Assembly (NCBI GenBank): GCA_025355465.1
Contig: JANXZO010000075.1
Span: forward strand, 51,564 to 115,563
Source of the DNA: Bacteroidales bacterium
Lineage (GTDB): Bacteria > Bacteroidota > Bacteroidia > Bacteroidales > FEN-979
Length of the DNA stretch: 64,000 nt
Reading direction: 5' to 3'
This document shows, piece by piece, positions 41,611 through 59,088 of this stretch (position 1 is the first letter of the stretch; every line of letters begins with the position of its first letter). The translations under genes and the position numbers were made by a program. The notes beneath the pieces are model-generated. The model worked only from the letters and a program-made list of their open reading frames with translations. It searched no databases and had not been told where the DNA came from.

Positions 41611-42141
41611 ATGGTGAATTACCCGGAACAATATGATATTCCGTTTAGCGGGTTGAAACAGGGCACTCACCTGTTTGATTTTCTGATCGGTAAAAAGTTC
41701 TTTGAACAGTTTGAATCGTCGGAAATTTCCGATGGCGAGGTAGCTGTTGCGGTGACCATGCAGAAGGAGGATCGGCTTTTCGATCTTCACTTTACGCTGA
41801 AAGGCACTGTTACCGTTCCCTGCGACCGCTGCAACGAAAATATCGGGGTGGCGATCGACGGCACGCAGCGGCTGCTGGTTAAGCTGGGAAGCGGCTATTT
41901 CGAGGAGAGCGAAGATGTGCAGGTGATTCCTGAGACGGACCACCGGCTTGCGCTGGCCGGCTTTCTGTACGAGTATGTGCTGCTGATGCTTCCCGCCCGC
42001 CGCGTTCATCCGGAAGATGAAAACGGAGAGAGCCTTTGCAACCTGGAGATCATCCGCCGGCTTAATGAACTGAACGAACGCCATGACCCGGATCCCCGTT
42101 GGGAGATCCTGAACAAACTAAAAGAAAATCGTAAATCGTAA
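41611..42141 (+). CDS. DUF177/YceD family protein
   Basis: ATG at 41611, immediately upstream of rpmF as is usual. Cys pairs VPCDRCN and ESLCN. The last codons and the stop are supplied by the tandem heptamer aaatcgt-aaatcgt (42126-42139). Confidence 0.85.
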   Translation: MVNYPEQYDIPFSGLKQGTHLFDFLIGKKFFEQFESSEISDGEVAVAVTMQKEDRLFDLHFTLKGTVTVPCDRCNENIGVAIDGTQRLLVKLGSGYFEESEDVQVIPETDHRLALAGFLYEYVLLMLPARRVHPEDENGESLCNLEIIRRLNELNERHDPDPRWEILNKLKENRKS

Positions 42142-42153
42142 ATATTAAGTATT

Positions 42154-43364: not shown

Positions 43365-44354
43365 ATGACAAAAATAAGAGCAAAGATATCGGGTATTCAG
43401 GGTTGGGTACCTCCCTATATTCTCACGAACAAGGAGCTGGAGACCATGGTGGAGACCACCGATGAGTGGATCATGACACGCACGGGGATCCGCGAGCGAC
43501 ACATCCTCAAAGGAGAGGGGCTGGGCACTTCCGACATGGCCGTGGAGGCGGTGAAGGGGTTGCTGGCCAAGACAGGCACCACAGCCGATGAAGTGGAGCT
43601 GCTGATCTGCGCCACCGTGACGCCCGACATGGTATTCCCGGCTACGGCCAACATCATCTGCGATAAGGTAGGCATCAAAAACGCGGTGGGGTACGACCTC
43701 AACGCCGCCTGCTCGGGGTTTCTTTTCGCCCTCGTAACGGCCTCCAAGTTTGTGGAGACAGGTACTTTTAAGAAAGTCATCGTGGTGGGAGCCGACAAGA
43801 TGTCGTCCATTACCGATTATACCAGCCGCGAAACCTGTGTGCTGTTTGGCGATGCCAGCGGCGCCGTGCTGCTCGAACCCACCACCGAAGAGGTGGGAGT
43901 GATGGACTCCCTGCTGCAAAGCGACGGAGCCGGACGGGTTCACCTGCACATGAAAGCCGGCGGATCGGTGAAACCCAGTTCTCACGACACCGTAGATGCG
44001 AAGGAGCACTTTGTTTACCAGGAGGGTCAGCCGGTGTTTAAGTTTGCCGTCACCAAAATGGCCGATGTGGCCGCCGAGATCATGGAGCGCAACAACCTCA
44101 CCAGCGAAGACATCTCATACCTGGTTCCGCACCAGGCCAACATGCGCATCATCGAAGCTACCGCACGCCGCATGGGCGTGGGCAAAGAGCAGGTGATGAT
44201 CAACATCGAACGCTACGGAAACACCACCTCCGGAACCATACCACTCTGCCTCTGGGAGTGGGAGAACAAACTCAAAAAAGGCGATAACATCATCCTCGCT
44301 GCCTTTGGCGGCGGATTTACCTGGGGATCGGTGTGGCTTAAGTGGGCCTATTAA
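43365..44354 (+). CDS. fabH: 3-oxoacyl-ACP synthase III
   Basis: Active-site Cys ([12 protein letters not shown]), His (VPHQANMRI) and Asn (GNTTSGTIP). 329 aa. Confidence 0.95.
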
Positions 44355-44415
44355 GTCTTGTTCATTTCTTTGATCGCCCAAAGAAACTCGCTAGAAATGC
44401 GGCCTAAGGCATTTG
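44355..44415. repeat. 'Empty-site' version of the composite repeat: left arm with hairpin joined directly to the right flank
   Basis: gtcttgttcaTTTCTTTGatcgccCAAAGAAActcgctagaaatgcgg|cctaaggcatttg. The left arm is ~95% identical to 55489-55537. The right flank matches 52671-52683 and 50068-50080. The ~155-bp hairpin element seen at 55538-55691 is absent. Confidence 0.6.
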
Positions 44416-44420
44416 AAAAA

Positions 44421-44523
44421 GAAATAGCGAAATAGCGAGGTAGCGAAATAGCGAAAAATCGTAAATCGTAAGTCGGATGGCCTTCACATTTGTGCATTTG
44501 TGCATCCGTGCATTCGTGCATAG
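44421..44523. repeat. Tandem 8/7-bp repeat arrays (aaatagcg family, aaatcgt family, catttgtg family)
   Basis: aaatagcg aaatagcg aggtagcg aaatagcg aaaaatcg-t aaatcgt aagtcgg ... catttgtg catttgtg catccgtg cattcgtg. Confidence 0.9.
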
Positions 44524-44542
44524 GTACCCTTTCCTATCAATA

Positions 44543-44598
44543 TATACGATAACGGCGTATAAGTATATTGAATATTATACGTTTCATTCGTATATTTG
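44543..44598 (+). promoter_or_regulatory. Twin dyads TATACG-N7-CGTATA plus a TAnnTTTG -7 box upstream of the ATPase gene
   Basis: Dyad 1 at 44543-44561 (tatacg ataacgg cgtata). Dyad 2 at 44576-44594 (tatacg tttcatt cgtata), centres 33 bp apart. TATATTTG at 44591-44598 overlaps dyad 2, 13 nt before ATG 44612. Confidence 0.45.
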
Positions 44599-44611
44599 CT
44601 AAAAATATCTT

Positions 44612-45781
44612 ATGGAAACAGTTCTTTACCGCTATAATCCCTGGTGGACAGGGGTGGTAAGTGAACCGGCGGGAATCGGGAGGCCTTCGGTGGAGGAGCT
44701 CCTTTACGGTCAGCTGGGAAATGACCAGGTGATCTTTATCACCGGGCTGCGACGGATCGGGAAGACCACCCTGATGAAGATGACCATTCACAGGTTGATC
44801 CGGGATTCTGTTACCGACGGCAGACATATTCTTTATGTGAGTCTCGACGATTACCAGCTTCAGAAACAATCCATCATGGATATCGTGGAGGAGTTCAGGA
44901 AGATCAACAAACTGAAGTTTGCAGAGCCTGTCTACCTCTTCCTCGATGAGGTTACCTATAAAGATGATTATGAACTTCAGCTTAAGAACCTGGTGGATGC
45001 GCAAAAAGTCAAGATCATTGCCTCAGCCTCCAGCGCTTCATTGCTGAAGAGCAAGAAAGCATACCTTACCGGACGCCATTTTGATATTGAGGTGAATCCG
45101 CTTACCTTCTCCGAATACCTGGCTTTCAAAGGGATTAATATCCTACCCCAGGATGCCGGACTCACGGAAAATTACTTCGAAGATTTCCTTAAAACGGGCG
45201 GTATTCCGGCCCATGTGCTTACCGGCAATTCCGATTACCTGCGCGAACTGGTCGATGATATCATCTACAAGGATATTGCCGTTAACCAGCAGGTGAAGGA
45301 TGTGCGGGTGCTTAAGGAGTTTTTTCTGCTACTGATGGAAAGGGCAGGGAAACAGTTCAGTATTAACAAGATCGCCCATGTTCTTCAACTCTCACCCGAT
45401 ACGGCCCGTCGATATATCGACCTTTTTGCCGATACCTACCTTATCCACCTCATGAGCCGGCATGGCAAAACCAACGAAAGGATTCTCTCTCCGAAAAAGA
45501 TTTATGCCGCCGATACAGGGATCCGTTGCCTTTTTACTGGCTACCGCGACAAAGGAAGTCTGTTCGAAAATTACATCTACCTGAGAATCCGCCCCCTGGG
45601 ACCTGGATATATCTACGAGAATAAAACGGAGATCGATTTCTACCTTCCCGATAAAACACTCATCGAAGTGAAATACCACAACGAACCCCTCTCCCCGGCT
45701 CAGGAGAAATTGTTTAACAGCTACCCCGCGAAACAAAGGCTGATCATACGAAGTGAGGAAGAGATGCTAGATCTCGGATGA
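44612..45781 (+). CDS. AAA-type ATPase with DUF4143-like C-terminal domain
   Basis: P-loop GLRRIGKTT, Walker B YLFLDEVT, C-terminal nuclease-fold-like region (EIDFYLPDKTLIEVKY). 389 aa. Confidence 0.8.
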   Translation: METVLYRYNPWWTGVVSEPAGIGRPSVEELLYGQLGNDQVIFITGLRRIGKTTLMKMTIHRLIRDSVTDGRHILYVSLDDYQLQKQSIMDIVEEFRKINKLKFAEPVYLFLDEVTYKDDYELQLKNLVDAQKVKIIASASSASLLKSKKAYLTGRHFDIEVNPLTFSEYLAFKGINILPQDAGLTENYFEDFLKTGGIPAHVLTGNSDYLRELVDDIIYKDIAVNQQVKDVRVLKEFFLLLMERAGKQFSINKIAHVLQLSPDTARRYIDLFADTYLIHLMSRHGKTNERILSPKKIYAADTGIRCLFTGYRDKGSLFENYIYLRIRPLGPGYIYENKTEIDFYLPDKTLIEVKYHNEPLSPAQEKLFNSYPAKQRLIIRSEEEMLDLG

Positions 45782-45968
45782 CGGATCACGGATTACGGAC
45801 TTTTTTCATCTGCTGTCTGTCATCTGTCTCAAATCGTCAATCGTTAATCAATCTGACCTTGTGACTTTGTGACTTTGTGACTTTGTGACCTTGTGACCTT
45901 GTGACCCTGTGACCCTGTGCCGTGGTAAAAATAAATTATCAATTATCCATTGTCAATTATCAATTAAT
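45774..45968. repeat. Composite tandem-repeat tract (7-mers acggatN; tctg-rich; 7-mers aatcgtN; 8-mers gtgacNNt; 7-mers aattatc)
   Basis: tcggatg acggatc acggatt acggac (contains the ATPase stop codon at 45779-45781). Then ccttgtga ctttgtga x3 ccttgtga x2 ccctgtga x2 (45857-45921). Then aattatc aattatc cattgtc aattatc aattaat (45934-45968). Confidence 0.9.
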
Positions 45969-46039
45969 GCCTATTTTTGTATTATACTAAAAAGCATAAC
46001 GCTAAATGGTATAACGCTAAAAGGTATAATTTTAAATAT

Positions 46040-47155
46040 ATGATAAACAATCCATTCAGTTACGGAAAGACGGTTGACGGGCCCTATTTTTATGGCCGGG
46101 AGCGGGAGATGGAGGAGATACGGATCTCGATGCAGAATGCCATCAACATAATCCTGTACGCCCCGAGGCGGATCGGGAAGTCTTCGCTGGTGATCAAGGT
46201 GCTGAAGGAGCTCGAGGCGGCTGGTCACCCGGTGGTATACATCGACCTCTTCAAAGTTTCATCGCGCGAAAAGTTCATTGAGCTCTATGCGCGCGAGGTG
46301 GTACGGGGAATGAAGAGCTGGGAGAAGGGGGTTCAGTTTATCAAGGGGGTAATCCGGGGTGTGGAGCCGGTGATGGGTCTCGATCATGCGGGGATGCCTG
46401 AACTGCGCCTCAACATCGATCCGCTGCAGAGCGCCCGGGCCTTCGAAGATATCCTCAACATACCGGGCCGGTCGAAAGGGGAGCGGTGCTGGGTGGTGGT
46501 GTTCGACGAGTTCCAGGAGATCGAAAAACTGGGCGGTGCCGATTTTGAAAAGGAGCTGCGGGCCAGCCTGCAGCATCACAAGAATGCGGCTTACCTGTTT
46601 CTCGGCAGCCAGCGGCACATGCTGCTCAACATGTTTTCGCGCAAAGAGCGGGCCTTTTATAATTTCGGGAAACTCTACCACCTCGACAAGCCACCCGTGA
46701 CCGATTCGGTGGCGTTCGTCGCCCGGCGCTTTGCCGCAGGGGGATACGAAATTGATATACAGATGGCGCAACAGATGGTGGAGCAGACGCACAACATCCC
46801 CTACTACCTGCAATACCTGGGGGCGGAGATATGGGAGAGCGCCCGCCTATCGGGAAAAAAGCCCGTGGAGGTTTACGCCGAAGCCCTCGACCGGCTGCTG
46901 ATCAACCAGGGCGACTACTTCCAGGGAATCCGGAGCCAGCTCACCCCGTTCTATGCAAAACTCCTCACCTCCGTGGCCATCCACGGAGCCGGGAGCTATG
47001 AATCGGAGTTCCTGCAGAAATTCCGCCTCTTCCCTGTCTCCAGCATGCAAAAAGCATATGCCCGCATGATCGACCTCGATATCCTCGAAAAGCGGGAGAA
47101 CCGGTTCTGCATCACCGACCCGTTTTTTGAGATGTGGATGAAACGTCAGAGCTAA
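46040..47155 (+). CDS. ATPase of the archaeal-ATPase/DUF234-like family
   Basis: ATG at 46040 (MINNPFSYGKTVDGPYFYGREREMEEI). P-loop APRRIGKSS, Walker B VVVFDEFQEI, C-terminal winged-helix-like end (FCITDPFFEMWMKRQS). Confidence 0.75.
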   Translation: MINNPFSYGKTVDGPYFYGREREMEEIRISMQNAINIILYAPRRIGKSSLVIKVLKELEAAGHPVVYIDLFKVSSREKFIELYAREVVRGMKSWEKGVQFIKGVIRGVEPVMGLDHAGMPELRLNIDPLQSARAFEDILNIPGRSKGERCWVVVFDEFQEIEKLGGADFEKELRASLQHHKNAAYLFLGSQRHMLLNMFSRKERAFYNFGKLYHLDKPPVTDSVAFVARRFAAGGYEIDIQMAQQMVEQTHNIPYYLQYLGAEIWESARLSGKKPVEVYAEALDRLLINQGDYFQGIRSQLTPFYAKLLTSVAIHGAGSYESEFLQKFRLFPVSSMQKAYARMIDLDILEKRENRFCITDPFFEMWMKRQS

Positions 47156-47273
47156 TGTGGTAATGTGGTGATGTGGTAATGTGAGAATTTGAAGATTTGA
47201 GGATTTGAGAATTATTTCACCCTGTGACCCTGTGACCCTGTGACCCTGTGCCGATTTGTTCACTCGTTCACTT
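47154..47273. repeat. 120-bp tract of 15 consecutive 8-bp units in one register, spanning four unit families
   Basis: aatgtggt aatgtggt gatgtggt aatgtgag aatttgaa gatttgag gatttgag aattattt caccctgt gaccctgt gaccctgt gaccctgt gccgattt gttcactc gttcactt. The first unit overlaps the stop codon (47153-47155). Confidence 0.92.
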
Positions 47274-47291
47274 GGAAAGGGTAAAAGAAAA

Positions 47292-47323
47292 TTTGGAGAA
47301 TAGTAACTTTAAAGTTACCTTTG
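47292..47323 (+). promoter_or_regulatory. Candidate Bacteroidota-type promoter (TTTG ... TACCTTTG) with a perfect 16-bp palindrome, upstream of higBA
   Basis: TTTG at 47292-47295, a 20-nt spacer, TACCTTTG at 47316-47323, ATG at 47342. The palindrome GTAACTTTAAAGTTAC (47303-47318) overlaps the -7 box, as expected for a TA autoregulation operator. Confidence 0.5.
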
Positions 47324-47341
47324 CATCTAATTGAATGATTT

Positions 47342-47683
47342 ATGGAGAGAATCCGCGAAATAGTTGCATACAAAAACTATTTTGAAGACTTCTTAAAGGC
47401 ACAACCCACTAAGGTTCAGAATAAGATCTTCAAAATATTAGAAGCAATTGAAACTTTAGAGAGAATTCCAACAAACTACCTAAAGCTCATCATCGGAACA
47501 GGCGGTCTTTACGAAGCAAGAATTCAATTAGGATCAGACATTTGGCGTGTTTTTTGTTTTTTCGACAAAGGAAAGTTAGTAATCCTTTTAAACGGATTTC
47601 AGAAAAAGACACAGAAAACCCCAAAAAACGAAATTGAGAAAGCAATCACTTTAATGAAAGAGTATTATGAAAACAGAAGCTAA
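47342..47683 (+). CDS. higB: Type II toxin, RelE/ParE superfamily (HigB / Gp49-like)
   Basis: 113 aa. YEARIQLGSDIWRVFCFFDKGKLVILLNGFQKKTQKTPKNEIEKA is typical of Gp49/HigB-type toxins. Overlaps the downstream HTH gene by 17 nt. Confidence 0.78.
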   Translation: MERIREIVAYKNYFEDFLKAQPTKVQNKIFKILEAIETLERIPTNYLKLIIGTGGLYEARIQLGSDIWRVFCFFDKGKLVILLNGFQKKTQKTPKNEIEKAITLMKEYYENRS

Positions 47684-47978
47684 GAAAACAGACATATCTA
47701 CCTGGGCTGAAATTAAAGACAAGGTATATGGAAAAGAAGGAACTGAAAGACGTGATAATCTTGACAGAGAGGTTGAATCATTTAGAATAGGCCTTTTGTT
47801 AAAAAAAGCAAGGGAATCCCGTAATTTGACTCAGGAAGAATTAGGACATTTGGTTGACAAGAAAAGAACATACATATCCCGGGTCGAAAACAATGGCAGT
47901 AATATTACGCTTAGCACTCTTTTTGAAATTGTTGAAAAAGGACTGGGCGGAAAGGTGAATATTTCTATAGAAGTTTAA
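47667..47978 (+). CDS. higA: XRE-family HTH antitoxin (HigA-like)
   Basis: 103 aa with HTH LTQEELGHLVDKKRTYISRVENNGSNITLSTLFEIV. The toxin-first gene order is typical of higBA. Confidence 0.8.
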   Translation: MKTEAKKTDISTWAEIKDKVYGKEGTERRDNLDREVESFRIGLLLKKARESRNLTQEELGHLVDKKRTYISRVENNGSNITLSTLFEIVEKGLGGKVNISIEV

Positions 47979-48139
47979 TATTGAATGCAAGCAATGCAAT
48001 GAATGCATGAGCCTTCTTTTAGCATCTCCTTTTTTCTTTTTTTGCCCTCAGGCCGCGAGGCCATTTCTGTTCACTTGTTCACTCGTTTAAAACAAATTGT
48101 TTAACGCAAAATGTTTATTATCCTTGTTTAAATTAAGTT

Positions 48140-48844
48140 ATGAATCCTTTCATCATCAGGGGTTACAAGGGTAAGAAGTATTTCTGCGACCGGGAGAGTG
48201 AAACTGAGGCCATTGCAGGTGCCATCAAAAATGGCCGCGACATCACGCTGGTGTCGCTGCGCAAAATGGGGAAGACAGGCCTGCTCTTCCACCTTTTCGA
48301 AAAACTGCGTAAGGAGGGGGAGGTGGAGCCGGTCTACCTGGATATTTACCACACGGAGAACCTCAACGGATTGATCGATCAGATGGCCACGGCCCTCTTC
48401 CGGATAAAGAAGAGCTTTGGCGCGCGCATGCAGGAGTTCTTGCGGAACTTTCGCTATGTAAGGCCCTCCGTTACTGTGGATCCGCAAACCGGACTACCCT
48501 CCCTGTCGTTCCAGATAGCAGATGCCAGGGAGGCACGGGGTACGCTCGAGGACCTCTTTGAAATTCTGCAGGAGCGGGGGCGGATTAAGCCCGTGGTGAT
48601 CGCCATCGATGAGTTCCAGCAGATTGCAACCTATCCCGAGCAGCATGTCGAGGCCCTGCTGCGCGGACTGATCCAGTCGCTGAACAATACCCGGTTCATC
48701 TTCTCCGGAAGCAACAAGACACTCCTTACCCGGATGTTCGGCGATGCCGCCCGCCCGTTCTACCAAAGCACAGAGATGATCTGCCGCCGCGGAGAGGAGT
48801 ACTATGTGTACGATGTCTTCTTTTCGAGATGGATGGAGAAGTAG
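48140..48844 (+). pseudogene. Internally deleted paralog of the 46040-47155 ATPase
   Basis: P-loop LRKMGKTG and Walker B VVIAIDEFQQI are retained. After ..PFYQSTEMI the sequence jumps to the family's C-terminal end (YYVYDVFFSRWMEK). Total 234 aa versus 371 aa, so ~130 aa are missing in frame. Confidence 0.5.
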
Positions 48845-48855
48845 GTTTAAGGTAA

Positions 48856-48992
48856 TGTGGGATGTGGGATGTGGGATATGGGATCTGAGATGTGAGATTC
48901 GAGTTCCGAGATTCGAGCTCCGAGTTTCCGGTGACTCGTTCACTCGTTCACTCGTTCACTTTGTAAAATTAATTATCAATTATCAATTATCA
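48856..48992. repeat. Composite tandem-repeat tract: 11 x 7-mers (tgtggga to tccgagt), 4 x 8-mers (cactcgtt), 4 x 7-mers (attatca)
   Basis: tgtggga x3, tatggga, tctgaga, tgtgaga, ttcgagt, tccgaga, ttcgagc, tccgagt, ttccggt. Then gactcgtt cactcgtt cactcgtt cactttgt. Then aaaatta attatca x3. Confidence 0.9.
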
Positions 48993-49018
48993 ATAAGTTT
49001 GCTCCAAATCTCACACTT

Positions 49019-49078
49019 ATGTCTAAAGTTGCGTTGATCTCCGGGGTTACCGGACAGGATGGTAGTTACCTGGCTTAT
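49019..49078 (+). pseudogene. gmd: GDP-mannose 4,6-dehydratase 5' stub (first ~19 codons only)
   Basis: ATG 49019 encodes [20 protein letters not shown], near-identical to the canonical Gmd N-terminus [23 protein letters not shown]. Similarity then stops. TAAGTTTG (-7-like box) lies at 48990-48997. Confidence 0.65.
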
Positions 49079-49084
49079 CAGGTT

Positions 49085-50072
49085 GGTGGAAAGCAAGCCT
49101 CGCCTAAAGAAGTTATACCTTCAGCAGCATAATCCTGAATATACAAGTGTTTACCTGTCGTATTCGGGAAACGGGAATATTAAGCCTGTATCGCCAAGGA
49201 GAGAACGGAAGCGGGAGAGCCTGGTATTAAAGCCCGAAGCAATCGGAAGGTTCGAGGAGTTTCTCACAAAAGCTGCAACCACCGGTCCTGGTTTTCGATA
49301 TTACCCCGATGCACTGGATTATATATTGAAGCTGAGAGATTATTTGAGACGCATTGACCTGATTGCAACCAACTACCTGCCTTCGGTAAAAGGCAACAAG
49401 CTTGATACACTGACGAATGCAGCCGGCACGACACAAAGATTGAGGAGTTCATGAACATCATCAACGAAATCGTCAGTGAAGGGGATGAGAAGATCGTGAT
49501 CTTCAGCCAGTGGGGTCGGTCTTAACCTTCAGGCCGGATCGGTGATTATCAATCTCGATGTGCCCTGGAATCCGGCCGTACTGGAGCAGCGCATCGGCAG
49601 GGTTCACCGTCTTGGGCAAAAGCGCAACGTTAGTGTGATCAACATGGTCTCGGCCGGGACCATTGAACATCGTATGCTCGACGTCCTGAAATTAAAATCC
49701 TCAATGGCTGCGGGCATTCTCGACGGGGGAGAAGATGCCATTTTCATGGGTGAAAGCCGGTTTAAAAAATTCATGTCCACGGTGGGTGAACTGATGAACA
49801 GGGAGGCTGGAGCGGTGAACAGAGCGCCGGAGGTGGTAACTCGTGATCAGGAAGTCCTCACTCCTGAACCGGAGAAATTACTGCATACGCCTGGAGTCCC
49901 GGATGGTTTGGCGGCAGCCGGGGAGCTGGTTGCAAAAGGAATGGACTTTTTATCGACGCTTGCGGCCGCATTGTCGCATCCCGATTCGGTAAAGCAGCTG
50001 ACCGAATCGCTCGTTGCGGAGGATCCCGCCAGCGGGAAGAGCTATTTAAGAATCCCCGTCGTAAAACCCTAA
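49085..50072 (+). pseudogene. SNF2-family helicase C-terminal remnants (frameshifted, internally deleted)
   Basis: Pieces in different frames: ..KIEEFMNIINEIVSEGDEKIVIFSQW (about 49440-49515), then LNLQAGSVIINLDVPWNPAVLEQRIGRVHRLGQKRNVSVINMVSAGTIEHRM (helicase motifs V-VI). The region between IFSQW and GLNLQ is missing. The final codons and stop come from the repeat flank ccccgtcgtaaaaccctaa. Confidence 0.65.
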
Positions 50073-50086
50073 GGCATTTAAAAAGG

Positions 50087-50150
50087 AAATAGCGAAATAG
50101 CGAGATAGCGAGATAGCGAAATTATTTGTGCATCTGTGCATTCGTGCATT
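50087..50150. repeat. 8-bp tandem array (aaatagcg to tgtgcatt families), near-duplicate of 44421-44523
   Basis: aaatagcg aaatagcg agatagcg agatagcg aaattatt tgtgcatc tgtgcatt cgtgcatt. Preceded by the same cctaaggcattt anchor as at 44403. Confidence 0.9.
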
Positions 50151-50221
50151 GATTTTAAAGGCATTCTTGCATTGGTCGCCTGTGACTTTGTACGTTCGTA
50201 GAAATCGTTTACCTTCGCTCG

Positions 50222-50629
50222 ATGGAAAAGCTGGAGAAATTCGACAGGCTGTCGATTGCGATTCTTACTGAGGAGATCGACAAGGCCTTGGAGGAGATCA
50301 GAATTAAGTATGGTCTTGAGGAGTTGGTAGTTGATTTGGTTAAGTCGAATAACATTACGATGACTGCAAAATTAACCGGAAGGGTTTCCGGTGTTCATGC
50401 GAAGAATTTTGAGCACAACATGGCATTGCTGTTTGCTGATTACAACGGACTGCCTGCTGATCTGCTGAACCAGGAGTTTATCAGCAACGGCAAGGGGTTT
50501 ACTGTTATCAGGATTGAACCGCGAAATCCCAGATATCCAATTCTGGCGAGGGGGCTTCTGGATAATCTGGTATATAAATTTTCAGTAATCCAGGTCAAAG
50601 AGGCGTTGGAGAGGAAGAAAAGGGTTTAA
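50222..50629 (+). CDS. Hypothetical protein
   Basis: 135-aa ORF with no recognisable motif. Coding status uncertain. Confidence 0.35.
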   Translation: MEKLEKFDRLSIAILTEEIDKALEEIRIKYGLEELVVDLVKSNNITMTAKLTGRVSGVHAKNFEHNMALLFADYNGLPADLLNQEFISNGKGFTVIRIEPRNPRYPILARGLLDNLVYKFSVIQVKEALERKKRV

Positions 50630-50730
50630 ATGGATGTTTGCTGTAGCCCAATGAACCTGGAAAATCCTGATACCAGATCTTTATACTTTGCACACTTCTA
50701 TTGACGGTAAGTAAGAAAATCTGAAAATCC

Positions 50731-52419
50731 ATGAAAAAGCTATATCTCCTTATTATCATTTTATTTATTGCCGGATCCGTCTACTCCCAGATCGTCTACG
50801 AGGACATCAACAACACTGCTATTTATGAATTCCTGGATGAGTTAGCTAATAACCGGATTATCGAGTTGAATTCGGTCGTGAAACCCTACTCCAGAGCCTA
50901 TATTGCCGCGAAGTTGAGGGAGGCGGAGTTAATAGTTAAGAGTGAAGAGTTAAGAGTTAAGAGTGAGGAGTTAAGAGTTAGGGTGAGCAGGAGGTTGGTG
51001 GAGGAGTTGGAGTTTTATCTGCAGGATTATCAGTTGGAGGGGAAAACAATTCCGGTTACGTATGAGCATAAGGTGGGGTTTATTGCGAAGAATAATCCGA
51101 ATATGAAGGTGGCGTTGAATCCGTTGGCTTTTAATTACAAGGATTCGTTGTTTACCTTTTCGATACGGCCGATATTGGGGGTGCAGTGGATGACGAATGA
51201 GAACGGCGCTGAGTATCACCGCTGGTGGGGTGGGAGTATGTTTGGATACATTGGCAAGAACTTTGGGTTTTATGCCAATATCAGGGACAATGAGGAGAGT
51301 ACGCCTCTGGCTAAGCCGGTTTATTTTACCGAGGCGCAGGGACAGGTTTATAAAAACATGGAAAAGGGTGCTGTGAACTACAGCGAGATGCGGGGGGGGA
51401 TTGTTGCTTCAGTAAGCTGGGGGTCGATCGGGATCATGAACGACCGGGTGGTGTGGGGCGACAACTACCATGGGGCAAATATTCTCTCCGGCAAGGCGCC
51501 GGCCTTTCCCTATCTGCAACTGCACCTGAACCCGGTGAAGTGGTTTGACTTTAACTACATGCATGGATGGCTTAACTCTAATATCATCGACAGCAGCCGT
51601 TCCTATTATATCGATGGGGTTTACCGGCAAACGCTCCGAAATAAATACATTGCTGCGAATATGTTCACCTTTATCCCCTGGCGGGGATTGAATCTCTCGT
51701 TCGGGAATTCGATCATCTACAGTGATATTAATATTAATCCGCTCTATTTTATCCCATTCCTGTTTTACAATGCCGTAGATGCAAGCCGGACAAATTATGC
51801 AGATTATGCAGGTTCCAACTCGCAACTATTCTTCAATATCAGCAGCCGGCAGATCAGGTACCTGCATCTGTTTGTTTCGCTCTATATTGATGAGTGGAAG
51901 ACTTCACGGGTTACTGATCCAAAAAAGAACAACTTTACCAGCCTCAAGGCAGGGTTCAGGTTAAGTGATTTTCCGGTAAAAAACCTGTCGCTTACTGCTG
52001 AGTACACCCGCACCATGCCCATGACCTACGACCATTACATCGCCACCACCACCTTTGCCTCCAACGACTACGTGCTGGGGAATTACATGCGGGAGAATTC
52101 GCAGGAGATCTATGTTGCCCTCGCATGGAGGCCAATCCGGGGACTTTTGATCAACACCTCCTATACACTGGCACAACATGGAGCTGATGTGAAATATCGT
52201 AACAATGCCGGCTACGCCGTGGATGGTGTGCCCTTCCTGAAAAACAAAACCTGGCAGAACAGCGCTTTCGAGCTCTCAGCCAGGTATGAGTTTGTGAGTA
52301 ACGGGTATTTCTTTGTTCAGTATCTAAACGGGGAACAACAAGGGGATGTTAAATACCTGCCGGTATTTATGCATGGCAGGACGAGTACGTTACTCTGTGG
52401 AGTGAACGTAGGGATTTAA
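50731..52419 (+). CDS. Outer-membrane protein, capsule-assembly Wzi-like
   Basis: Signal peptide present. The N-terminal helical motif (IYEFLDELANNRIIELNSVVKPYSRAYIAAKL) resembles what I recall of Wzi-family proteins. A long beta-barrel-like remainder follows. Contains an in-frame heptamer-repeat insertion (see repeat 50929-50984). Confidence 0.55.
   Translation: MKKLYLLIIILFIAGSVYSQIVYEDINNTAIYEFLDELANNRIIELNSVVKPYSRAYIAAKLREAELIVKSEELRVKSEELRVRVSRRLVEELEFYLQDYQLEGKTIPVTYEHKVGFIAKNNPNMKVALNPLAFNYKDSLFTFSIRPILGVQWMTNENGAEYHRWWGGSMFGYIGKNFGFYANIRDNEESTPLAKPVYFTEAQGQVYKNMEKGAVNYSEMRGGIVASVSWGSIGIMNDRVVWGDNYHGANILSGKAPAFPYLQLHLNPVKWFDFNYMHGWLNSNIIDSSRSYYIDGVYRQTLRNKYIAANMFTFIPWRGLNLSFGNSIIYSDININPLYFIPFLFYNAVDASRTNYADYAGSNSQLFFNISSRQIRYLHLFVSLYIDEWKTSRVTDPKKNNFTSLKAGFRLSDFPVKNLSLTAEYTRTMPMTYDHYIATTTFASNDYVLGNYMRENSQEIYVALAWRPIRGLLINTSYTLAQHGADVKYRNNAGYAVDGVPFLKNKTWQNSAFELSARYEFVSNGYFFVQYLNGEQQGDVKYLPVFMHGRTSTLLCGVNVGI
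50929..50984 (+). repeat. Heptamer array inside the Wzi-like CDS, translated as (VKSEELR)x2
   Basis: ttaatag ttaagag tgaagag ttaagag ttaagag tgaggag ttaagag ttagggt. Three heptamers make 7 codons, giving ..LIVKSEELRVKSEELRVRV... The units are reverse complements of the ctcttaa/ctcctca units at 52893-52969. Confidence 0.9.
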
Positions 52420-52517
52420 TCAAACTCTTAATTCTTAATTCTTTTGCTCTCAGGCCAGGCGGGATTTGTACTTTTCTTTTGCTTGTCCAAAAGAAAACTA
52501 CGAAAAGAAAAAGACAG

Positions 52518-52670
52518 CCTGGGCTTTGTAACGACCCACATTCAGCTCAATTCCGAAGCCAGGCAAGCCGTTCGGCTGTAATCGTGTTTCTTCTAATCAG
52601 TTCTTTTCGAGCCTCACTTCGGGCCTGGCTTCTTTCGGAATTTTCGCTGTGTGGGTCCCCGTTATAAAGC
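52518..52670. mobile_element. MITE-like ~153-bp hairpin element, copy A
   Basis: The ends cctGGGCTTTGTAACGAcccac ... gtgggtcCCCGTTATAAAGCC are inverted repeats. Internal arms aattccgaagccaggc / gcctggcttctttcggaatt also pair. About 70-75% identical to copy B. The 62-aa ORF across it looks spurious. Confidence 0.6.
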
Positions 52671-52688
52671 CCTAAGGCACTTGAAAAC

Positions 52689-52728
52689 AATGCACGAATG
52701 TACAAATGCACGTATATGTGGTGTGACC
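52689..52728. repeat. 8-bp tandem array (aatgcacg family, the reverse complement of cgtgcatt)
   Basis: aatgcacg aatgtaca aatgcacg tatatgtg gtgtgacc, directly after the cctaaggcacttg anchor. Confidence 0.8.
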
Positions 52729-52861
52729 GTCATCAAGACTTACGAAGTAAGTTGCAGATGAAGAGTAACGCCGGGTTTTAACCCGGTGACAGGTGCGGCG
52801 CCAGCCGCCCTGGGTGGGAGGGTGGGGCTTGTGCTTCTCAATTCACAAGTACAAATCTAAA

Positions 52862-52969
52862 ATGGCAAAATGCAAAATGGCAAAATCGTAAACTCCTCAC
52901 TCTTAACTCTTAACTTTTAACTCCTCACTCTTAACTGTTAATTCCTAATTCTTAATTCCTAATTCCTAA
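52862..52969. repeat. Tandem arrays: aaaatggc family (8/7-mers) then 11 x 7-mers (ctcctca/ctcttaa to ttcctaa)
   Basis: aaaatggc aaaatgc aaaatggc aaaatcgt ... ctcctca ctcttaa ctcttaa cttttaa ctcctca ctcttaa ctgttaa ttcctaa ttcttaa ttcctaa ttcctaa (52893-52969). The array ends 7 nt before the stop codon of the minus-strand gene. Confidence 0.9.
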
Positions 52970-52976
52970 TTGACTT

Positions 52977-54101
52977 TTACCCCGCTCTCTTCTTCATCGA
53001 CTTAATGACCGTCCAGGGGAGGGTGTGGCTCTTCTTTTGGTTGAAATAGATGGGGATATAGGTGAGGATGAGTCCTGATCCTACCAGGATGGTTGTGCCC
53101 AGGTATAGGTTCAGGTGTTGCATCTCAAAGGAGAGGATGATATAGCAGATGCTTACCAGGAAAAGGATGGCTGTGACCTGTTTGTGGCTGAAGCCGAGAC
53201 TGAGGAGTTGATGATGGATATGGGTTTTGTCGGGGTAAAAGGGGGATTTTCCCTGAAGGATCCGGGTGAGCATCACGCGGCAGGTGTCGAAGATGGGGAT
53301 GATGAGGATACCGAAGGAGACCACCGGGGAGGCTTCGATGTGCCAGGGCAGATTGGCTGAGAGGTTTAGCCCGTTGAAGCGGATCACCATCACCGACATC
53401 ATGAAGCCGAGAAAGAGGGAGCCGGTGTCGCCCATGAAGATCTTGTTCTTCTTCGACCAGAGGTTGAAGCGCAGGAAGGCGAGGAGGGCGCCGATGTTGG
53501 CGCCGCAGATCAGCGCATAACCGGGTTGGTTGTTGATGTAAAACCAGGCGCCGAAGGTGGCAAAGGCGGTGAGGGCCATGGTGCCTGCCAGGCCGTCGAC
53601 CCCATCGATGAGGTTGAAAGCGTTGGTGATGCCCAGGATGAGGAAGAGGGTGAAGAAGATGCTGAGGGGGTAGCTGATCCCGTTTACGCCGAAATAGCCG
53701 TGAAAGCTGGTGAAGCGGATGTCGGCCAGCAGGATGAGGATGAGGGCGGCGATGATCTCGGCGATGAACTTCTTGTAGAAGGAGATGCCCAGGATATCGT
53801 CTTTGATGCCGATGAAGAAGATGATCACGCTGCCGGCAATGAGATACTGGTACTCGGGGAATTCGAAGATCCTCAACAGGAGCGAAGTCGCTACAATGAC
53901 GCTGAGAAAGATGGAGATGCCGGCCAGCCGGGGGGTGGGGAGGGCGTGGGCGGCGCGGAGGTTGGGCTGGTCGTATATCTTACTGTTGTGGGCGATCCTT
54001 ACCAGTATGGGTATGGAGTAGTAACAGAGCAGCAGCGCTACGGCCAGTGCCAGCAGGATCAGTTGATCGTCGGTAAAGATTTTGTGTAAAAGGTCGCCCA
54101 T
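52977..54101 (-). CDS. MraY/WecA-family polyprenyl-phosphate N-acetylhexosamine-1-phosphate transferase (paralog A)
   Basis: Multi-TM protein with family motifs IKDDILG, NAFNLIDGVDGLA, MGDTGSLFLGF, IPIFDT.RV, PDKTHIHH. Confidence 0.88.
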   Translation of the reverse strand: MGDLLHKIFTDDQLILLALAVALLLCYYSIPILVRIAHNSKIYDQPNLRAAHALPTPRLAGISIFLSVIVATSLLLRIFEFPEYQYLIAGSVIIFFIGIKDDILGISFYKKFIAEIIAALILILLADIRFTSFHGYFGVNGISYPLSIFFTLFLILGITNAFNLIDGVDGLAGTMALTAFATFGAWFYINNQPGYALICGANIGALLAFLRFNLWSKKNKIFMGDTGSLFLGFMMSVMVIRFNGLNLSANLPWHIEASPVVSFGILIIPIFDTCRVMLTRILQGKSPFYPDKTHIHHQLLSLGFSHKQVTAILFLVSICYIILSFEMQHLNLYLGTTILVGSGLILTYIPIYFNQKKSHTLPWTVIKSMKKRAG

Positions 54102-54332: not shown

Positions 54333-55448
54333 ATGGATCTGAACCTGCTCCTAAAAATCATTCTCTCACTGGGTGTAGCCTTTGCGATAACGGCCATGCT
54401 TGTGCCTGTGGTGGTGAGTATTGTGAAGGAGAAGGGGGTGGTTGCCCACGAGAATGGCCGCACCTCTCACACCGGCACGATCCCCACCATGGGTGGGATT
54501 GCCATCTTTGCCGGCTTCCTGATCTCGGTTCTGGTATTCTCGGGTTCCGGGTTCCGCGACGACTTCCGCTATGTGATTGCCGGGGCGGTATTTATGCTGA
54601 TGGTGGGAATGAAGGACGATATCCAGGGAATTACCCCATGGATGAAGTTTGCAGGACAGATTATTGCAGCCTTGATCATCATTATACCGGGAGATATCCG
54701 GTTTACAAGCCTGCAGGGGTTCCTGGGGATTGAGGAGATCAGTTATTTCTGGAGTGTGGTGATCTCTTTGGTTACCATTGTCGGGTTGACCAACTGTTTT
54801 AACCTGATCGATGGCATTGATGGACTTGCCTCCGGAATAGGCACCCTGGTATCAGTTACCTTAGGGATTTGGTTTGGATTGGCAGGTCAATTTGGGTTGA
54901 TGTTTATTTGCCTGGCCCTTGTTGGATCGCTGATTGCTTTTTCAATCTACAACATCTGGGGGAAGGAGAACAAAATATTTATGGGGGATACCGGTTCGCT
55001 TGTGCTGGGCTTTATCCTCGCAGCCCTGGTTATCGAATTCAATGAATTAAACGTGGGGGTGCAGACTTCGGTGGATCTCATCTCGGCTCCCGCCATCAGC
55101 GTAGGGATCCTGATCGTGCCGGTTTTCGACACGCTGCGGGTCTTTATGCTGAGGATGTACCGGCTGAAACATCCCTTCAGCCCCGACAAAACCCATGCAC
55201 ACCACAACCTCATCTCCCTCGGGGCTTCTCACCCGCGGGCAACACTATCCCTTATTTTCCTGAACTTCCTGTTCATCGGTATCTCCTTCCTCCTCAACGG
55301 ACTGGGAAACACCTTCGTGCTCCTGATCGTGATGCTGCTTGCGCTGGTGGCCTTCTACCTGCCGGTATTTGTATTGCGGTTTAAGAACAGCGAGGGGAAC
55401 TCTTTTCGCAACTGGGTTGCGAAGGTTTCAATGAATCTTTTTGTTTAA
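54333..55448 (+). CDS. MraY/WecA-family transferase (paralog B)
   Basis: ATG at 54333 (the listed first M is a TTG). Motifs MKDDIQG, NCFNLIDGIDGLA, MGDTGSLVLGF, VPVFDTLRV, PDKTHAHH. Divergent from paralog A across a 231-bp spacer. Confidence 0.88.
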   Translation: MDLNLLLKIILSLGVAFAITAMLVPVVVSIVKEKGVVAHENGRTSHTGTIPTMGGIAIFAGFLISVLVFSGSGFRDDFRYVIAGAVFMLMVGMKDDIQGITPWMKFAGQIIAALIIIIPGDIRFTSLQGFLGIEEISYFWSVVISLVTIVGLTNCFNLIDGIDGLASGIGTLVSVTLGIWFGLAGQFGLMFICLALVGSLIAFSIYNIWGKENKIFMGDTGSLVLGFILAALVIEFNELNVGVQTSVDLISAPAISVGILIVPVFDTLRVFMLRMYRLKHPFSPDKTHAHHNLISLGASHPRATLSLIFLNFLFIGISFLLNGLGNTFVLLIVMLLALVAFYLPVFVLRFKNSEGNSFRNWVAKVSMNLFV

Positions 55449-55537
55449 TTGATCCCTTTTCACTAGCCCTCAAGCCGGGCGGGCCGTATCTTGTTCATTT
55501 CTTTGATCGCCCAAAGAAACGAGCGCTAGAAATGCGG

Positions 55538-55691
55538 ACTGGGTTTTTCGACGACCCACCATCGACTCGATTCCTAAGCCAGTCTAGCCGTTCGGCTATA
55601 ATCATATGGTTTCTTATCAACCTTAACCCAGCCTCACTTCTCCGCCTGGCTTTTGCGGAATCTTCGCCGGGTGGGTACCCCGTCGTAAAAC
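55538..55691. mobile_element. MITE-like ~154-bp hairpin element, copy B
   Basis: The ends actGGGTTTTTCGACGAcccac ... gtgggtaCCCCGTCGTAAAAC are inverted repeats. Internal arms gattcctaagccag / cctggcttttgcggaatc also pair. Flanked on the left by the same hairpin-containing arm found at 44355-44402. Confidence 0.6.
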
Positions 55692-55804
55692 CCTAACCCG
55701 ACTTGCATCCCCAGCTTCGGAATTTAGCCTGTGCCGGGTGGTTCAGTTTTTCGATCCACCTTTTCGGGTAACACAGATTTTTTAACAAACGGGTAGTTTT
55801 TGTA

Positions 55805-56687
55805 TCAACCTTTTTCCCATTGATGAAATGGTTGTGCAGTGATGGTTTTATGATCGATGGTGAAGGTATCCGACTGATCATGCGTTATAAGGCATGCGTT
55901 TTGAACCCCGAAATAATTCATGGCCTCCAATATTCCGTCTATTTCCCTGTCCATATTGTTCTGGTCTAATTGCCAGCATACCTGATAAAGGCCCTTCAAT
56001 TTTCCATTTTGAAATGCGACGAAATCACATTCTTTTTTATCCGAGAAGTAGAAAATCTCAGGTGTTTGCCGTCGCAGATTCAGATAGACCATATTCTCGA
56101 GGAGCCTGCCTTTATCCTCACTAAAAGAAACCGAATTAACATCAATGAAACCGTTATCAATACAGTAAACTTTTTTAGCATTTACAACCTGTATCTTATG
56201 AGAATAGCTGAATTTAGGAACAAAAAAGAAAAAGCAGGCATCGACAAAATAGGAGAGATAGTCCATCATACAGGAGGAAGAGCCAATCTGAAATATTTTT
56301 CTCAGACTGTTACCAGTAATGGGTTTTCCGGTATTTGACACAAGCCATACTGCAAGTTGTTGCAAAACATGGTTGTTTTTTAAATTGTACCGTATTACAA
56401 TATCACGAATGACAATATCATTGAAAGCCTGCATCAGTACCTCAGGCAATCCTGTTTTCAAATATTCAGGAAAGCCTCCCGTTTTCATGTATTTCTCTGA
56501 TGAACTGGCATCCCGGCCCTGGTTTGTAAAAGCAAGATATTCGGTATATGAGAAAGGGAATAATTCTCAATGCATGTGATGTCAGGTCGGCGAAACCTTC
56601 GACAGATCGTGGTAACCCCGAATCCATTTGGGTTAAGCGTTCTTTCTGGGAACCAATTACCTGCTCAATGAATAATTTCGATAACAC
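55805..56687 (-). pseudogene. DUF4143-type ATPase with its P-loop domain deleted
   Basis: The N-terminal ~35 aa (MLSKLFIEQVIGSQKERL...) join, in another frame, to ELFPFSYTEYLAF..KYMKTGGFPEYL and an intact C-terminal region. Compare VNPLTFSEYLAF..FLKTGGIPAHVL in the 44612 paralog. No Walker A or B motif remains. Confidence 0.65.
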
Positions 56688-57935: not shown

Positions 57936-59049
57936 CCGGCCGAACCTGCTCCTTAAAATCATTCTCTCACTGGGTGTAGCCTTTGCGATAACGGCCATGC
58001 TTGTACCGGTGGTGGTGAGTATTGTAAAGGAAAAAGGGGTGGTTGCACATGAAAATGGCCGCACCTCTCACACCGGCAGTATCCCCACCATGGGGGGGGA
58101 TCGCCATATTTGCCGGCTTCCTGATCTCGGCCTGGTCTTTTCGGGCTCCGGATTCCGCGACGACTTCCGCTATGTGATTGCCGGTGCAGTATTTATGCTA
58201 ATGGTGGGGATGAAGGATGACATTCAGGGAATTACCCCCTGGATGAAGCTTGCAGGTCAGATTATTGCAGCCCTGATAATCATTGTGCCGGGAGATATCC
58301 GTTTTACCAGCCTGCAGGGGTTTTTGGGGATTGAAGAGATCAGTTATTTCTGGAGCGTGGTAATCTCATTGGTTACCATTGTCGGGTTGACGAACTGCTT
58401 TAACCTGATTGATGGCATTGATGGACTTGCCTCAGGAATAGGCACCCTGGTCTCAATTACCTTAGGGATCTGGTTTGGATTGGCGGGTCAATATGGACTG
58501 ATGTTTATTTGCCTTGCCCTTGTTGGATCCCTGATTGCCTTTTCAATCTACAACATCTGGGGCAAGGAGAACAAGATATTTATGGGCGATACCGGTTCGC
58601 TTGTGCTTGGTTTTATCCTCGCAGCCCTGGTTATCGAATTCAATGAGTTGAATGTGGGGGTGCAGACTTCAGTTGATCTCATTTCAACCCCGGCTATAAG
58701 TATCGGGATTATGATCGTACCCGTATTTGATACACTCCGGGTATTTATTCTCAGAATGTGGCGAAGAAAACACCCTTTTTCTCCAGACAAGACCCATACG
58801 CATCACAATCTGATTAACTTGGGGGCATCTCATCACAAGGCCACGTTATCGCTGATGTTTCTTAATGGTATTTTCATTGCTATTTCATTTGCATTAAACT
58901 CTCTGGGTGCTACGATTCTCTTAACCCTTATCATGGCTTTAGCATTACTGGCATTCTATCTCCCGATTTTTGCCTTTCGGTTTAAGGATAAAGATTCTAC
59001 CCGACTTCGCACGAGACTTGCCAGGGTTACTTCGTTGTTTATTGCTTGA
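57916..59049 (+). pseudogene. MraY/WecA-family paralog B' (~90% nt identity to 54333-55448), with a replaced 5' end and a compensated double frameshift
   Basis: Homology to B starts at gaacctgctcc (57942); the native start codon and promoter are gone. The only in-frame ATG (57916) lies inside the antisense of A'. A G8 run at 58092-58099 (+1) and a -1 about 45 nt later convert TM-helix residues IAIFAGFLISVL into DRHICRLPDLGL. The listed 501-aa ORF (57544-59049) is a read-through artefact. Confidence 0.55.
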
Positions 59050-59056
59050 TTTAATT

Positions 59057-59088
59057 GTGACAAAGTCACAGGGTCACAGGGTCACAAG
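59057..59088. repeat. 8-bp tandem array (gtcacagg, the reverse complement of the cctgtgac family)
   Basis: gtgacaaa gtcacagg gtcacagg gtcacaag, starting 8 nt after the stop of B'. Confidence 0.85.

Follow-up and report, generated by a model that had tools for sequence, protein, structure and literature searches.

The 64-kb window analyzed here (the whole stretch of 64,000 nucleotides, from an uncultured member of the Bacteroidales) carries, at positions 47154–47273, a 120-nt tract of direct octamer repeats between the end of an ATPase_2/AAA-family gene and the promoter of the higBA gene pair (Table 1). A first-pass annotation of this DNA had divided the tract into fifteen consecutive octamers without a phase slip, and we found that split to be exact. 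As also described there, the tract starts within the stop codon of the ATPase gene and ends 69 nt before the higB ATG, and all but one of the 15 units (14 of 15) open with a purine; every unit has a pyrimidine at position 3. We ran the autocorrelation analysis that the annotation had proposed, and peaks appeared only at lags of 8, 16, and 24, where the self-identity of the tract was 0.74, 0.59, and 0.50, respectively (remaining lags, 0.10–0.35). The lag-8 value was the highest of any 120-nt stretch in the window (background, 0.248 ± 0.055), and Tandem Repeats Finder (TRF) reported three period-8 arrays in the tract with 0% indels. Given the lag-8 self-identity, its position as the window maximum, and the TRF arrays, we conclude that the periodicity of the tract is real and far above chance.

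Table 1. Genes, repeat units, and related arrays around the octamer tract (window coordinates)
Feature	Position	Strand	Remarks
ATPase_2/AAA-family gene	46040–47155	+	Pfam ATPase_2, AAA_14, nSTAND1; 371-aa gene call in the identical contigs L081/L082
TAA stop of the ATPase gene	47153–47155	+	Overlaps unit 1 of the repeat tract
Family 1: AATGTGGT, AATGTGGT, GATGTGGT, AATGTGAG	47154–47185	+	Local array beginning in the stop codon
Family 2: AATTTGAA, GATTTGAG ×2, then degenerate AATTATTT	47186–47217	+	Grades out of family 1; AATTATTT is the seam to the next module
Family 3: (C/G)ACCCTGT ×4	47218–47249	+	TRF: ACCCTGTG ×4.0, 100% identity; member of a dispersed family; L085 homology begins here
GCCGATTT	47250–47257	+	No repeat unit; junction (GTGCCGATTT), conserved, where family 3 meets family 4; identical in L085
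Family 4: GTTCACTC, GTTCACTT	47258–47273	+	Dispersed family; identical 16-mer at 48938
higBA promoter/operator block: TTTG (47292–47295), palindrome GTAACTTTAAAGTTAC (47303–47318), TAccTTTG (47316–47323)	47292–47323	+	Repeat tract lies outside
higB, Gp49 family	47342–47683	+	
higA, HTH_3	47667–47978	+	
Sister array of family 3: TGACCTTG/TGACTTTG/TGACCCTG ×8.2, ending GTGCCG (45917–45922)	45854–45922	+	Upstream of the ATPase gene
Further family 4 array: TGTTCACT ×2.5	48068–48087	+	Window–L085 homology ends here
Post-paralogue spacer: ATGTGGG ×6, then CGAGTTC-type heptamers, then ACTCGTTC ×3.4 (family 4)	48855–48960	+	
Array family ACCCTGTG/TGACCTTG	45854, 47219		Reverse complement (GTCACAGG) at 59065
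Array family GTTCACT	47258, 48068, 48934		
Array family AATTATC	45934, 48971		
Array family GAAATAGC, then TTTGTGCA	44421, 50086		
Array family ATGTGG	47154, 48855		

Register and grading of the unit families

The first-pass annotation held that neighboring units differ by one to four substitutions, so that each of the four families grades into the next, and it took the strict 8-nt register across them as a sign that the whole tract had evolved in place by duplication and point mutation of octamers. The actual series of differences between neighbors is 0, 1, 3, 2, 2, 0, 5, 5, 1, 0, 0, 4, 5, 1, which does not agree with that range, and the 5/8 differences, which fall between GATTTGAG and AATTATTT, between AATTATTT and CACCCTGT, and between GCCGATTT and GTTCACTC, are about what is expected at random for unrelated octamers. 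Grading of one family into another was therefore retained only for the series AATGTGGT → AATGTGAG → AATTTGAA → GATTTGAG; it fails for the rest of the tract, where these three boundaries stand at chance.

The register itself turned out to be uninformative. Units of period 8 that are unrelated have no fixed phase relative to each other, and one frame will fit any such arrays that adjoin; in the tract, the odd units AATTATTT and GCCGATTT take up the spacers between arrays, and lag-8 matches drop to chance at ∼47210–47218. When the consensus units were compared in register, GATTTGAG and GACCCTGT (families 2 and 3) agreed at 2/8 positions and so did GACCCTGT and GTTCACTC (families 3 and 4), versus 4/8 in another rotation. 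The purine/pyrimidine homogeneity of the columns was matched in 16% of trials in which six blocks were placed at random relative phases. The 8-nt register simply results from the adjacency of two blocks that both have period 8, and it should not be taken as a sign of a phased structure.

Composite origin of the tract

Contigs encoding an exactly identical HigB formed two groups: L081 and L082, which are 100% identical to the window, and L083–L085, which represent another genome. Homology between L083–L085 and the window runs at 96.8% identity from 47219, inside the ACCCTGTG array, to 48073, and the DNA upstream of it is unrelated. Upstream of its higBA promoter, L085 carries, in order, the hairpin CCGCTCTCCGAGCGG, GTTACTCT ×3, GTCACTCT, TTTACCCT, GTGACCCT, GTGCCGATTT, GTTCACTC, and GTTCACTT, with the ACCCTGTG-family array graded from GTTACTCT through GTCACTCT and TTTACCCT to GTGACCCT. 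This arrangement indicates that families 3 and 4, together with the intervening GCCGATTT, travel with higBA and that families 1 and 2 do not. The right end of the window–L085 homology also lies at a GTTCACT array (48068–48073).

The same division was seen elsewhere. Families 3 and 4 were found in L085 and in L165 and L166, which belong to other species and are not syntenic for ATPase–higBA, and families 1 and 2 were found in no other fetched sequence; across all fetched sequences, family 1 is unique to this locus except for a 7-nt version at 48855. Arrays related to family 4 lie at 48068 in the window and at L165:6051, L166:3357, and L085:173, and the ACCCTGTG–GTGCCGATTT–GTTCACTY block recurs 1.3 kb upstream of the tract, 0.8 and 1.7 kb downstream of it, and in other species. 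Moreover, a ACCCTGTG...GTGCCG array is present on both ATPase flanks (45888–45922 and 47219–47253; 94% identity over 35 nt), so the ATPase segment is bracketed by direct copies of one array.

Because families 3 and 4 occur separately from families 1 and 2, at least two modules must have been fused in the tract, and we conclude that its origin is composite. The first-pass annotation had judged fusion of independent arrays the less likely course, which is contradicted by the presence of sub-arrays 3 and 4 beside an identical higB in L083–L085 without sub-arrays 1 and 2. It had also named the finding that would overturn growth in place, namely sub-arrays at separate loci in related strains, and we found these in part: in L083–L085, on the upstream ATPase flank, in the GTTCACTY arrays at 48068 and 48934, and in two further species. 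What survives of growth by octamer duplication and point mutation concerns units 1–7 (AATGTGGT → GATTTGAG), which are gap-free, graded, and unique to the locus, and single arrays elsewhere, as in L085; for the tract as a whole it does not hold. The suggested comparison of the orthologous spacer in related strains could be made but told us little, since L081 and L082 do not differ from the window (100% identity) and L165 and L166, the nearest species, lack synteny here. Looking up exact matches to the neighboring AAA_14 ATPase and to FabH brought no further contexts.

That all four families nevertheless descend in place from one octamer array, of which the register would be the trace, we consider very unlikely. 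The gap-free period of 8 over 120 nt and the true gradation from family 1 to family 2 are what such a minisatellite-like history predicts, and the family 3 array of L085 grades from GTTACTCT, which, one indel aside, resembles family 4 (GTTCACTC). However, families 3 and 4 occur without families 1 and 2 in L085 and other species, a second copy of family 3 lies upstream of the ATPase gene, the in-register similarity of 2/8 at both later family boundaries lies below that of other rotations, and a register shared by unrelated units cannot, by construction, be lost.

We think it probable instead that the tract is non-coding tandem-repeat filler, reaching from the ATPase stop to the higBA promoter, in which two independently derived blocks are joined at ∼47210–47218. 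Block A (47154–47217) would have grown in place beside the stop codon, where an octamer was duplicated by slipped-strand mispairing; its units would then have gained point mutations, and mutated units would have been re-amplified (AATGTGGT → AATGTGAG → AATTTGAA → GATTTGAG). Block B (47218–47273), made up of ACCCTGTG ×4, GCCGATTT, and GTTCACTY ×2, would be a copy of a dispersed composite module that here forms part of the upstream higBA flank. The blocks may have been joined when the ATPase segment met the higBA flank, and since ACCCTGTG...GTGCCG arrays lie on both sides of the ATPase gene, recombination or duplication on the homology of the ACCCTGTG array is the likeliest joining route. More broadly, the clade to which the window belongs would accumulate 7-/8-nt arrays in any unconstrained DNA, typically from a stop codon to the regulatory region of the next gene. 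MutS-type mismatch repair does not act on loops as large as 7–8 nt, which would let arrays of such units grow. What we infer from these data is slippage, array-mediated recombination, and that no function depends on the phase. The tract marks the seam between the ATPase gene and the higBA module, and arrays coincide with three rearrangement or homology boundaries in this region.

Other arrays in the window

The window contains 26 period-7/8 arrays, compared with 0.7 in shuffles, and nearly all of them are found in the spacers of the 42.1–59.1-kb region. Period 8 accounts for 15 of the 26, and the sister spacers mix periods: 8, 7, and 8 in 44421–44521; 7, 7/8, 8, 7, and 15 in 45770–46029; 9, 8, and 14 in 47984–48117; 7, 7, 8, and 7 in 48855–48994; and 8, 7, and 7 in 52859–52971. 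The intervals between arrays in these spacers are not multiples of 8. The most direct comparison comes from a second ATPase_2 gene (48140–48844, truncated), whose product shares 29% protein identity with the tract ATPase and which is followed by TAATGTGG-type repeats at a 7-nt period (ATGTGGG ×6) and later by the identical 16-mer GTTCACTCGTTCACTT. Thus, the arrays are far more alike than the ATPase genes that precede them, and the period is not conserved.

These observations bear on another proposal of the first-pass annotation, that an 8-bp periodicity is itself selected; on such a view the spacing could serve, for example, a structural DNA element or phased duplex binding sites. The proposal can draw on the strongest lag-8 signal in the window and on columns 1 and 3, which are nearly uniform in purine/pyrimidine class, but the column uniformity has a P of ∼0.16, the paralogous site has a 7-nt period, sister spacers mix periods of 7, 8, 9, 14, and 15, and the loci of the clade have heptamer and octamer arrays in similar numbers (44 versus 37). 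Given that 15 of 26 window arrays have period 8, finding several arrays of one period in a row is unremarkable; furthermore, a repeat of 8 bp does not keep step with the helical turn and would not be expected to produce a planar bend. We found the proposal unsupported and regard it as extremely unlikely. Curved DNA with phased A-tracts was rejected separately: the autocorrelation peaks fall only at 8, 16, and 24, and the values at lags 10 and 11 are 0.33 and 0.25.

Arrays of the window also reach into genes. The final four codons of an AAA_14/DUF4143 ATPase gene (44690–45781), together with its TGA stop, lie within a GATCACG-type heptamer array (45770–45799), showing that arrays extend into the ends of coding sequences. 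Within the gene for a Wzi-family capsule-assembly protein (ORF 50731–52419), a GAGTTAA heptamer array (50926–50980; ×7.9, with a super-period of 21) encodes ELxVKSx heptapeptide repeats in a hypervariable segment; the copy number of the heptapeptide differs among close homologues, some of which have further repeat insertions, and distant homologues have no repeats.

L081 (window 45860–52968) and L082 (window 44428–47432) are independent short-read contigs of the same strain that begin and end inside arrays (TGACCTTG, TAATTCC, and GAAATAGC). Arrays break assemblies, which could hide copy-number variation, and contigs that end in arrays matter for the quality of metagenome-assembled genomes (MAGs).

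The higBA promoter and structural tests

The block AATTTGGAGAATTGTAACTTTAAAGTTACCTTTGC is common to about 30 metagenomic higBA loci, whose homology to the window sets in at 47284–47303. No arrays are found in any of them, so the tract does not belong to the control region of higBA. The TTTG and TAnnTTTG elements of the block match the published Bacteroidetes −33 and −7 promoter consensus, and the palindrome GTAACTTTAAAGTTAC is likely the HigA operator. In most other genomes (metagenomic higBA loci L086–L156), the homologous pair has ahead of it an imperfect palindrome ending in ...CGTTATGGCGCATAATA, ∼40–200 nt upstream of higB, that resembles an integron attC site, so higBA seems to circulate elsewhere as an integron-type cassette; in the lineage of the window, tandem arrays occupy the position of this palindrome.

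One reading that this arrangement might invite is a phase-variation locus, in which changes in repeat number would switch the ATPase or higBA on or off. A tandem repeat between the end of a gene and a promoter is at least suitably placed, and yet the stop codon falls in the first unit, so a change in copy number leaves the ATPase frame intact, and the tract lies upstream of the TTTG/TAnnTTTG elements rather than between them. In addition, the contigs from six samples are 100% identical, and similar arrays are found in housekeeping operons. We rejected such a contingency locus and give it next to no credence.

Several other identities for the tract were considered. Its predicted RNA fold has a z of +0.2, no more structure than shuffles. 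Rfam, at gathering thresholds, returned no match in the whole window, and ARAGORN found no tRNA or tmRNA. Pfam searches of 30 open reading frames (ORFs) at 32.5–62.8 kb identified no integrase, transposase, or reverse transcriptase that could account for the arrays. A scan for sigma-70 promoters and hairpin terminators gave counts not above shuffles and nothing in the tract, with a promoter model that is the wrong one for Bacteroidota. An integron attC site was dismissed, as the tract has direct repeats only, the fold z of +0.2 applies, and no integrase was identified among those ORFs of the window; an attC-like palindrome does lie elsewhere, at 52521–52672. The tract is also not a clustered regularly interspaced short palindromic repeat (CRISPR) array, since its units are 8 nt and contiguous, as opposed to repeats of 24–48 nt with unique spacers. 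G-quadruplex formation was rejected because G-tracts are absent, and Rho-loading sites were rejected because families 1 and 2 have no C. Supplying stop codons in three frames does not explain the purpose of the arrays: many contain TAA or TGA, and several beside stop codons contain neither. Finally, descent of GCCGATTT + GTTCACT from the hairpin-tail module GGCCATTTCTGTTCA was set aside as a resemblance only.

Arrays across the Bacteroidales clade

FabH places the window among uncultured Bacteroidales, with MAGs at 84% identity as the best matches. In the closest MAG loci (FabH identity ≥81%), we found 7–8-nt arrays, often 0–6 nt past the fabH stop, and nearly none in the remaining loci. Array density was 13.4 bp/kb in the window, 3–38 in the closest MAG loci, and 79 in the 1.1-kb contig L085, compared with 1.4 in 71 more distant Bacteroidota fabH loci. 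The arrays are limited to one clade of Bacteroidales MAGs. The loci of this clade contained 81 arrays, 44 of heptamers and 37 of octamers.

Unit sharing was scored as exact canonical matches, in any rotation and on either strand, against a control in which letters were shuffled within units; single-linkage clustering at a distance of ≤1 was dropped as too permissive, since it chained 47 of the 81 arrays into one cluster. We detected 55 exact unit matches between sources, where 1.9 were expected (maximum 13), and 18 within sources, where 0.7 were expected. L165 and L166, with 88% and 82% Wzi identity, carry the unit families of the window despite their lack of synteny at ATPase–higBA.

Judged from a crude gene model, an array cluster lay ≤10 nt from 24 of 57 neighboring gene 3′ ends versus 2 of 35 neighboring 5′ ends, and 3 of 53 array clusters were inside an ORF, all of them in the Wzi gene. 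An orthologous spacer provided a second view. Between yceD and rpmF, an AAATCGT-like array of 2.6–5 copies lies at or just past the yceD stop in six of eight array-bearing clade sequences; L004 has ATGTACG there in at least 17 copies, and more distant relatives have no array. These data establish both a bias toward gene 3′ ends and a change of copy number between relatives. In the window (42126–42143), the yceD frame runs into the AAATCGT array, and its stop is a TAA within the array; the spacers compared were those of L001–L006 and L008. L004 has the octamer AAATGGTG after fabH, after another gene, and filling the gap between atpD and atpC. In L003 (13012–13081), GAGCTGGT/GAGATGGT units directly follow a stop codon, and 17 nt farther on comes the reverse complement TCACCATC ×4, so that the opposed arrays form a hairpin.

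Several points weigh against our reading of the tract as unconstrained filler. Sharing of units between sources is ∼30-fold above expectation and extends to housekeeping operons, for example AAATGGTG in L004, and local seeding alone is insufficient to produce it. Sharing beyond chance means either that arrays spread between loci or that certain units are favored by selection or by the way they are generated; orthologous sites contribute part of it, and another part is due to a ∼240-nt dispersed element (described below) that carries arrays behind it. The occurrence of AAATGGTG and AAATCGT in housekeeping operons suggests inter-locus array transfer or a sequence-specific factor. Within the strain, no copy-number polymorphism was seen, L081 and L082 (six samples) matching the window at 100%, although contigs break inside arrays. 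The link to stop codons could reflect a function in 3′ untranslated regions (UTRs) rather than missing constraint. Moreover, slippage, escape from mismatch repair, and recombination are steps that we infer.

The main competitor to which these points lead is a sequence-specific repeat system, in which a limited repertoire of units (AAATCGT, AAATGGTG, ACYCTGTG, GTTCACTY, and others) is kept by a dedicated factor or laid down by a dedicated process, the tract being a row of functional sites. Candidate factors would be a single-stranded nucleic acid–binding protein, each domain of which would read ∼7–8 nt of a 3′ UTR or of intercistronic RNA, or a binder of double-stranded DNA. Beyond the ∼30-fold excess of exact unit sharing across loci and species over a composition-matched expectation, such a system would account for identical units at non-orthologous housekeeping sites, for arrays that begin ≤10 nt from stop codons, and for the retention of the yceD–rpmF array across the clade. 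There are also precedents: deletion of heptamer repeats in Nostoc altered reporter expression (bioRxiv 10.1101/2022.06.06.494920), and heptamer repeats can be bound by cold-shock proteins with an oligonucleotide/oligosaccharide-binding (OB) fold (PMC4679880). We nonetheless regard a dedicated system as unlikely. Families 1 and 2 of the tract were found at no other locus, units drift freely within arrays, the same unit switches between periods 7 and 8, one array sits inside a coding gene, and the ∼30 homologous higBA loci with the same promoter have no arrays; in addition, the sharing is due in part to orthologous sites and to the dispersed array-carrying element. One family can also occur in both orientations relative to the flanking genes, as with GTCACAGG at 59065 or GATGCAG and CATCCTG in one L165 spacer, which argues against a strictly RNA-level reader but not against a DNA-level one. 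We likewise regard it as unlikely that this uncultured, probably freshwater clade of Bacteroidales maintains a conserved set of ∼10 hepta- and octanucleotide units, propagated in tandem at unrelated loci, including in essential operons and usually from the stop codon, by means of a dedicated reader or a templated process that adds or copies repeats. If that were true, the genomes of the clade would make a tractable second model for the cyanobacterial repeats discussed next.

Relation to known repeat systems

Heterocystous cyanobacteria have short tandemly repeated repetitive (STRR) heptamers, namely CCCCAGT, TTGGTCA, and CAACAGT, which were reportedly first described in 1990, by Mazel et al. 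The tract is not a cyanobacterial STRR proper: the organism is a relative of the Bacteroidales, and the array units listed include none of these three. Like the STRR and the contiguous heptamer repeats of Nostoc (bioRxiv 10.1101/2022.06.06.494920), the arrays described here use a small unit repertoire at many unrelated intergenic sites; they differ in phylum and in units, in combining 7- and 8-nt units, in the gradation between units, and in their link to a dispersed structured element. Unit sharing between species parallels the puzzle posed by the cyanobacterial STRR, and the clade offers an independent lineage in which to weigh function against mutational by-product.

The tract is an intergenic simple-sequence repeat of 5–11-nt units, similar to the STRR and to long simple-sequence repeats (LSSRs). 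In keeping with LSSRs, the arrays consist of spacer-free tandem units, are non-coding and near the end of the upstream gene, show lineage-specific abundance at the sampled loci, and change in copy number or unit between relatives. The LSSRs of Mrázek et al. 2007, as summarized in PMC4679880, are likewise spacer-free arrays of 7–8 nt, mostly non-coding, sporadic and lineage-specific, with heptamers prominent, and polymerase slippage is given in that summary as the proposed origin of prokaryotic LSSRs. Measured against the same summary, the present case differs in its uncultured Bacteroidales host, in octamers that are about as common as heptamers, and in unrelated families placed end to end in one spacer. 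The repeats GGGAATC of Xanthomonas and GGGGA(C/T)T of Nostoc (Rehm et al. 2015, PMC4692102) are also intergenic, nearer the end of the upstream gene, and variable between close relatives, and many overlap a stop codon or sit 0–50 bp from one. Those units, however, are G-rich and capable of forming G-quadruplexes, with one dominant unit per genome, whereas here G-tracts are absent and at least 10 families coexist.

The TAACTGA repeats of Beggiatoaceae, cyanobacteria, and a few Bacteroidetes (MacGregor 2015, PMC4679880) resemble the present arrays as short direct intergenic repeats, and in Gramella and Aequorivita long TAACTGA arrays stand beside other heptamer arrays in one spacer; Paludibacter, of the Bacteroidales, has a few (PMC4679880). 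Most TAACTGA sets comprise two to six copies just upstream of start codons, whereas the arrays here hug stop codons and lie ∼50–100 nt from the next start, and among them we saw no TAACTGA units. BrickBuilt of Porphyromonas gingivalis, a MITE (miniature inverted-repeat transposable element) with an internal 23-nt minisatellite (PMC4596501), shares with our material a Bacteroidales intergenic setting, structured leader and tail parts joined to a spacer-free array, multiple copies, and restriction to a species; it is a precedent in the Bacteroidales for a minisatellite carried within a dispersed element. BrickBuilt has a single kind of 23-nt unit and defined inverted-repeat ends, in contrast to the many 7–8-nt units found here, which also occur away from the dispersed element, and to the tract, which has no inverted ends.

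The dispersed element and the accessory island

A composite element of ∼240 nt occurs just 3′ of genes in the window (52447–52687 and 55469–55705, with a partial copy at 44351–44409) and elsewhere (L165:5442–5682, L165:14575–14810, L166:2880–3125, and L085:2–81 and 971–1031). It consists of a small GC hairpin, a TTCTTTG...CAAAGAA hairpin, and a ∼150-nt imperfect palindrome ending in ...CCCCG(T/C)..AAA.CCCTAAGGCATT, whose DNA fold has an energy of −40 kcal/mol (z = −7.2), and as a whole it can be likened to an attC site or to a MITE of the enterobacterial repetitive intergenic consensus (ERIC) or Correia type. What looks like an empty site is present at 44395–44420, where the flanks of the element meet with no palindrome between them (GCGGCCTAAGGCATTT). 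In L085, L165, and L166, families 3 and 4 follow the ∼240-nt element plus a hairpin. The sequence CCTAAGGCAYTTRAAAA occurs three times in the window, with tandem arrays directly after each occurrence.

The region around the tract also contains fragments of genes: the truncated ATPase_2 gene already mentioned (48140–48844), the C-terminal end of a helicase (49542–50072), and a DUF4143-only fragment (55805–56488). These fit a decaying accessory region between fabH and a polysaccharide locus, and the seam marked by the tract lies within this island, beside that locus. Three family 4 glycosyltransferase genes of the WecA/MraY-like type are present (54341–54830, 57942–58431, and, on the minus strand, 52977–54101), two of which share DNA segments of 90–92% identity 3.6 kb apart at the head of the polysaccharide-synthesis locus, an arrangement that suggests duplicated or alternative initiating transferases. 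In related species, different defense-type genes (AbiEii, AEP-TOTE, HD, and SocA) lie beside Wzi.

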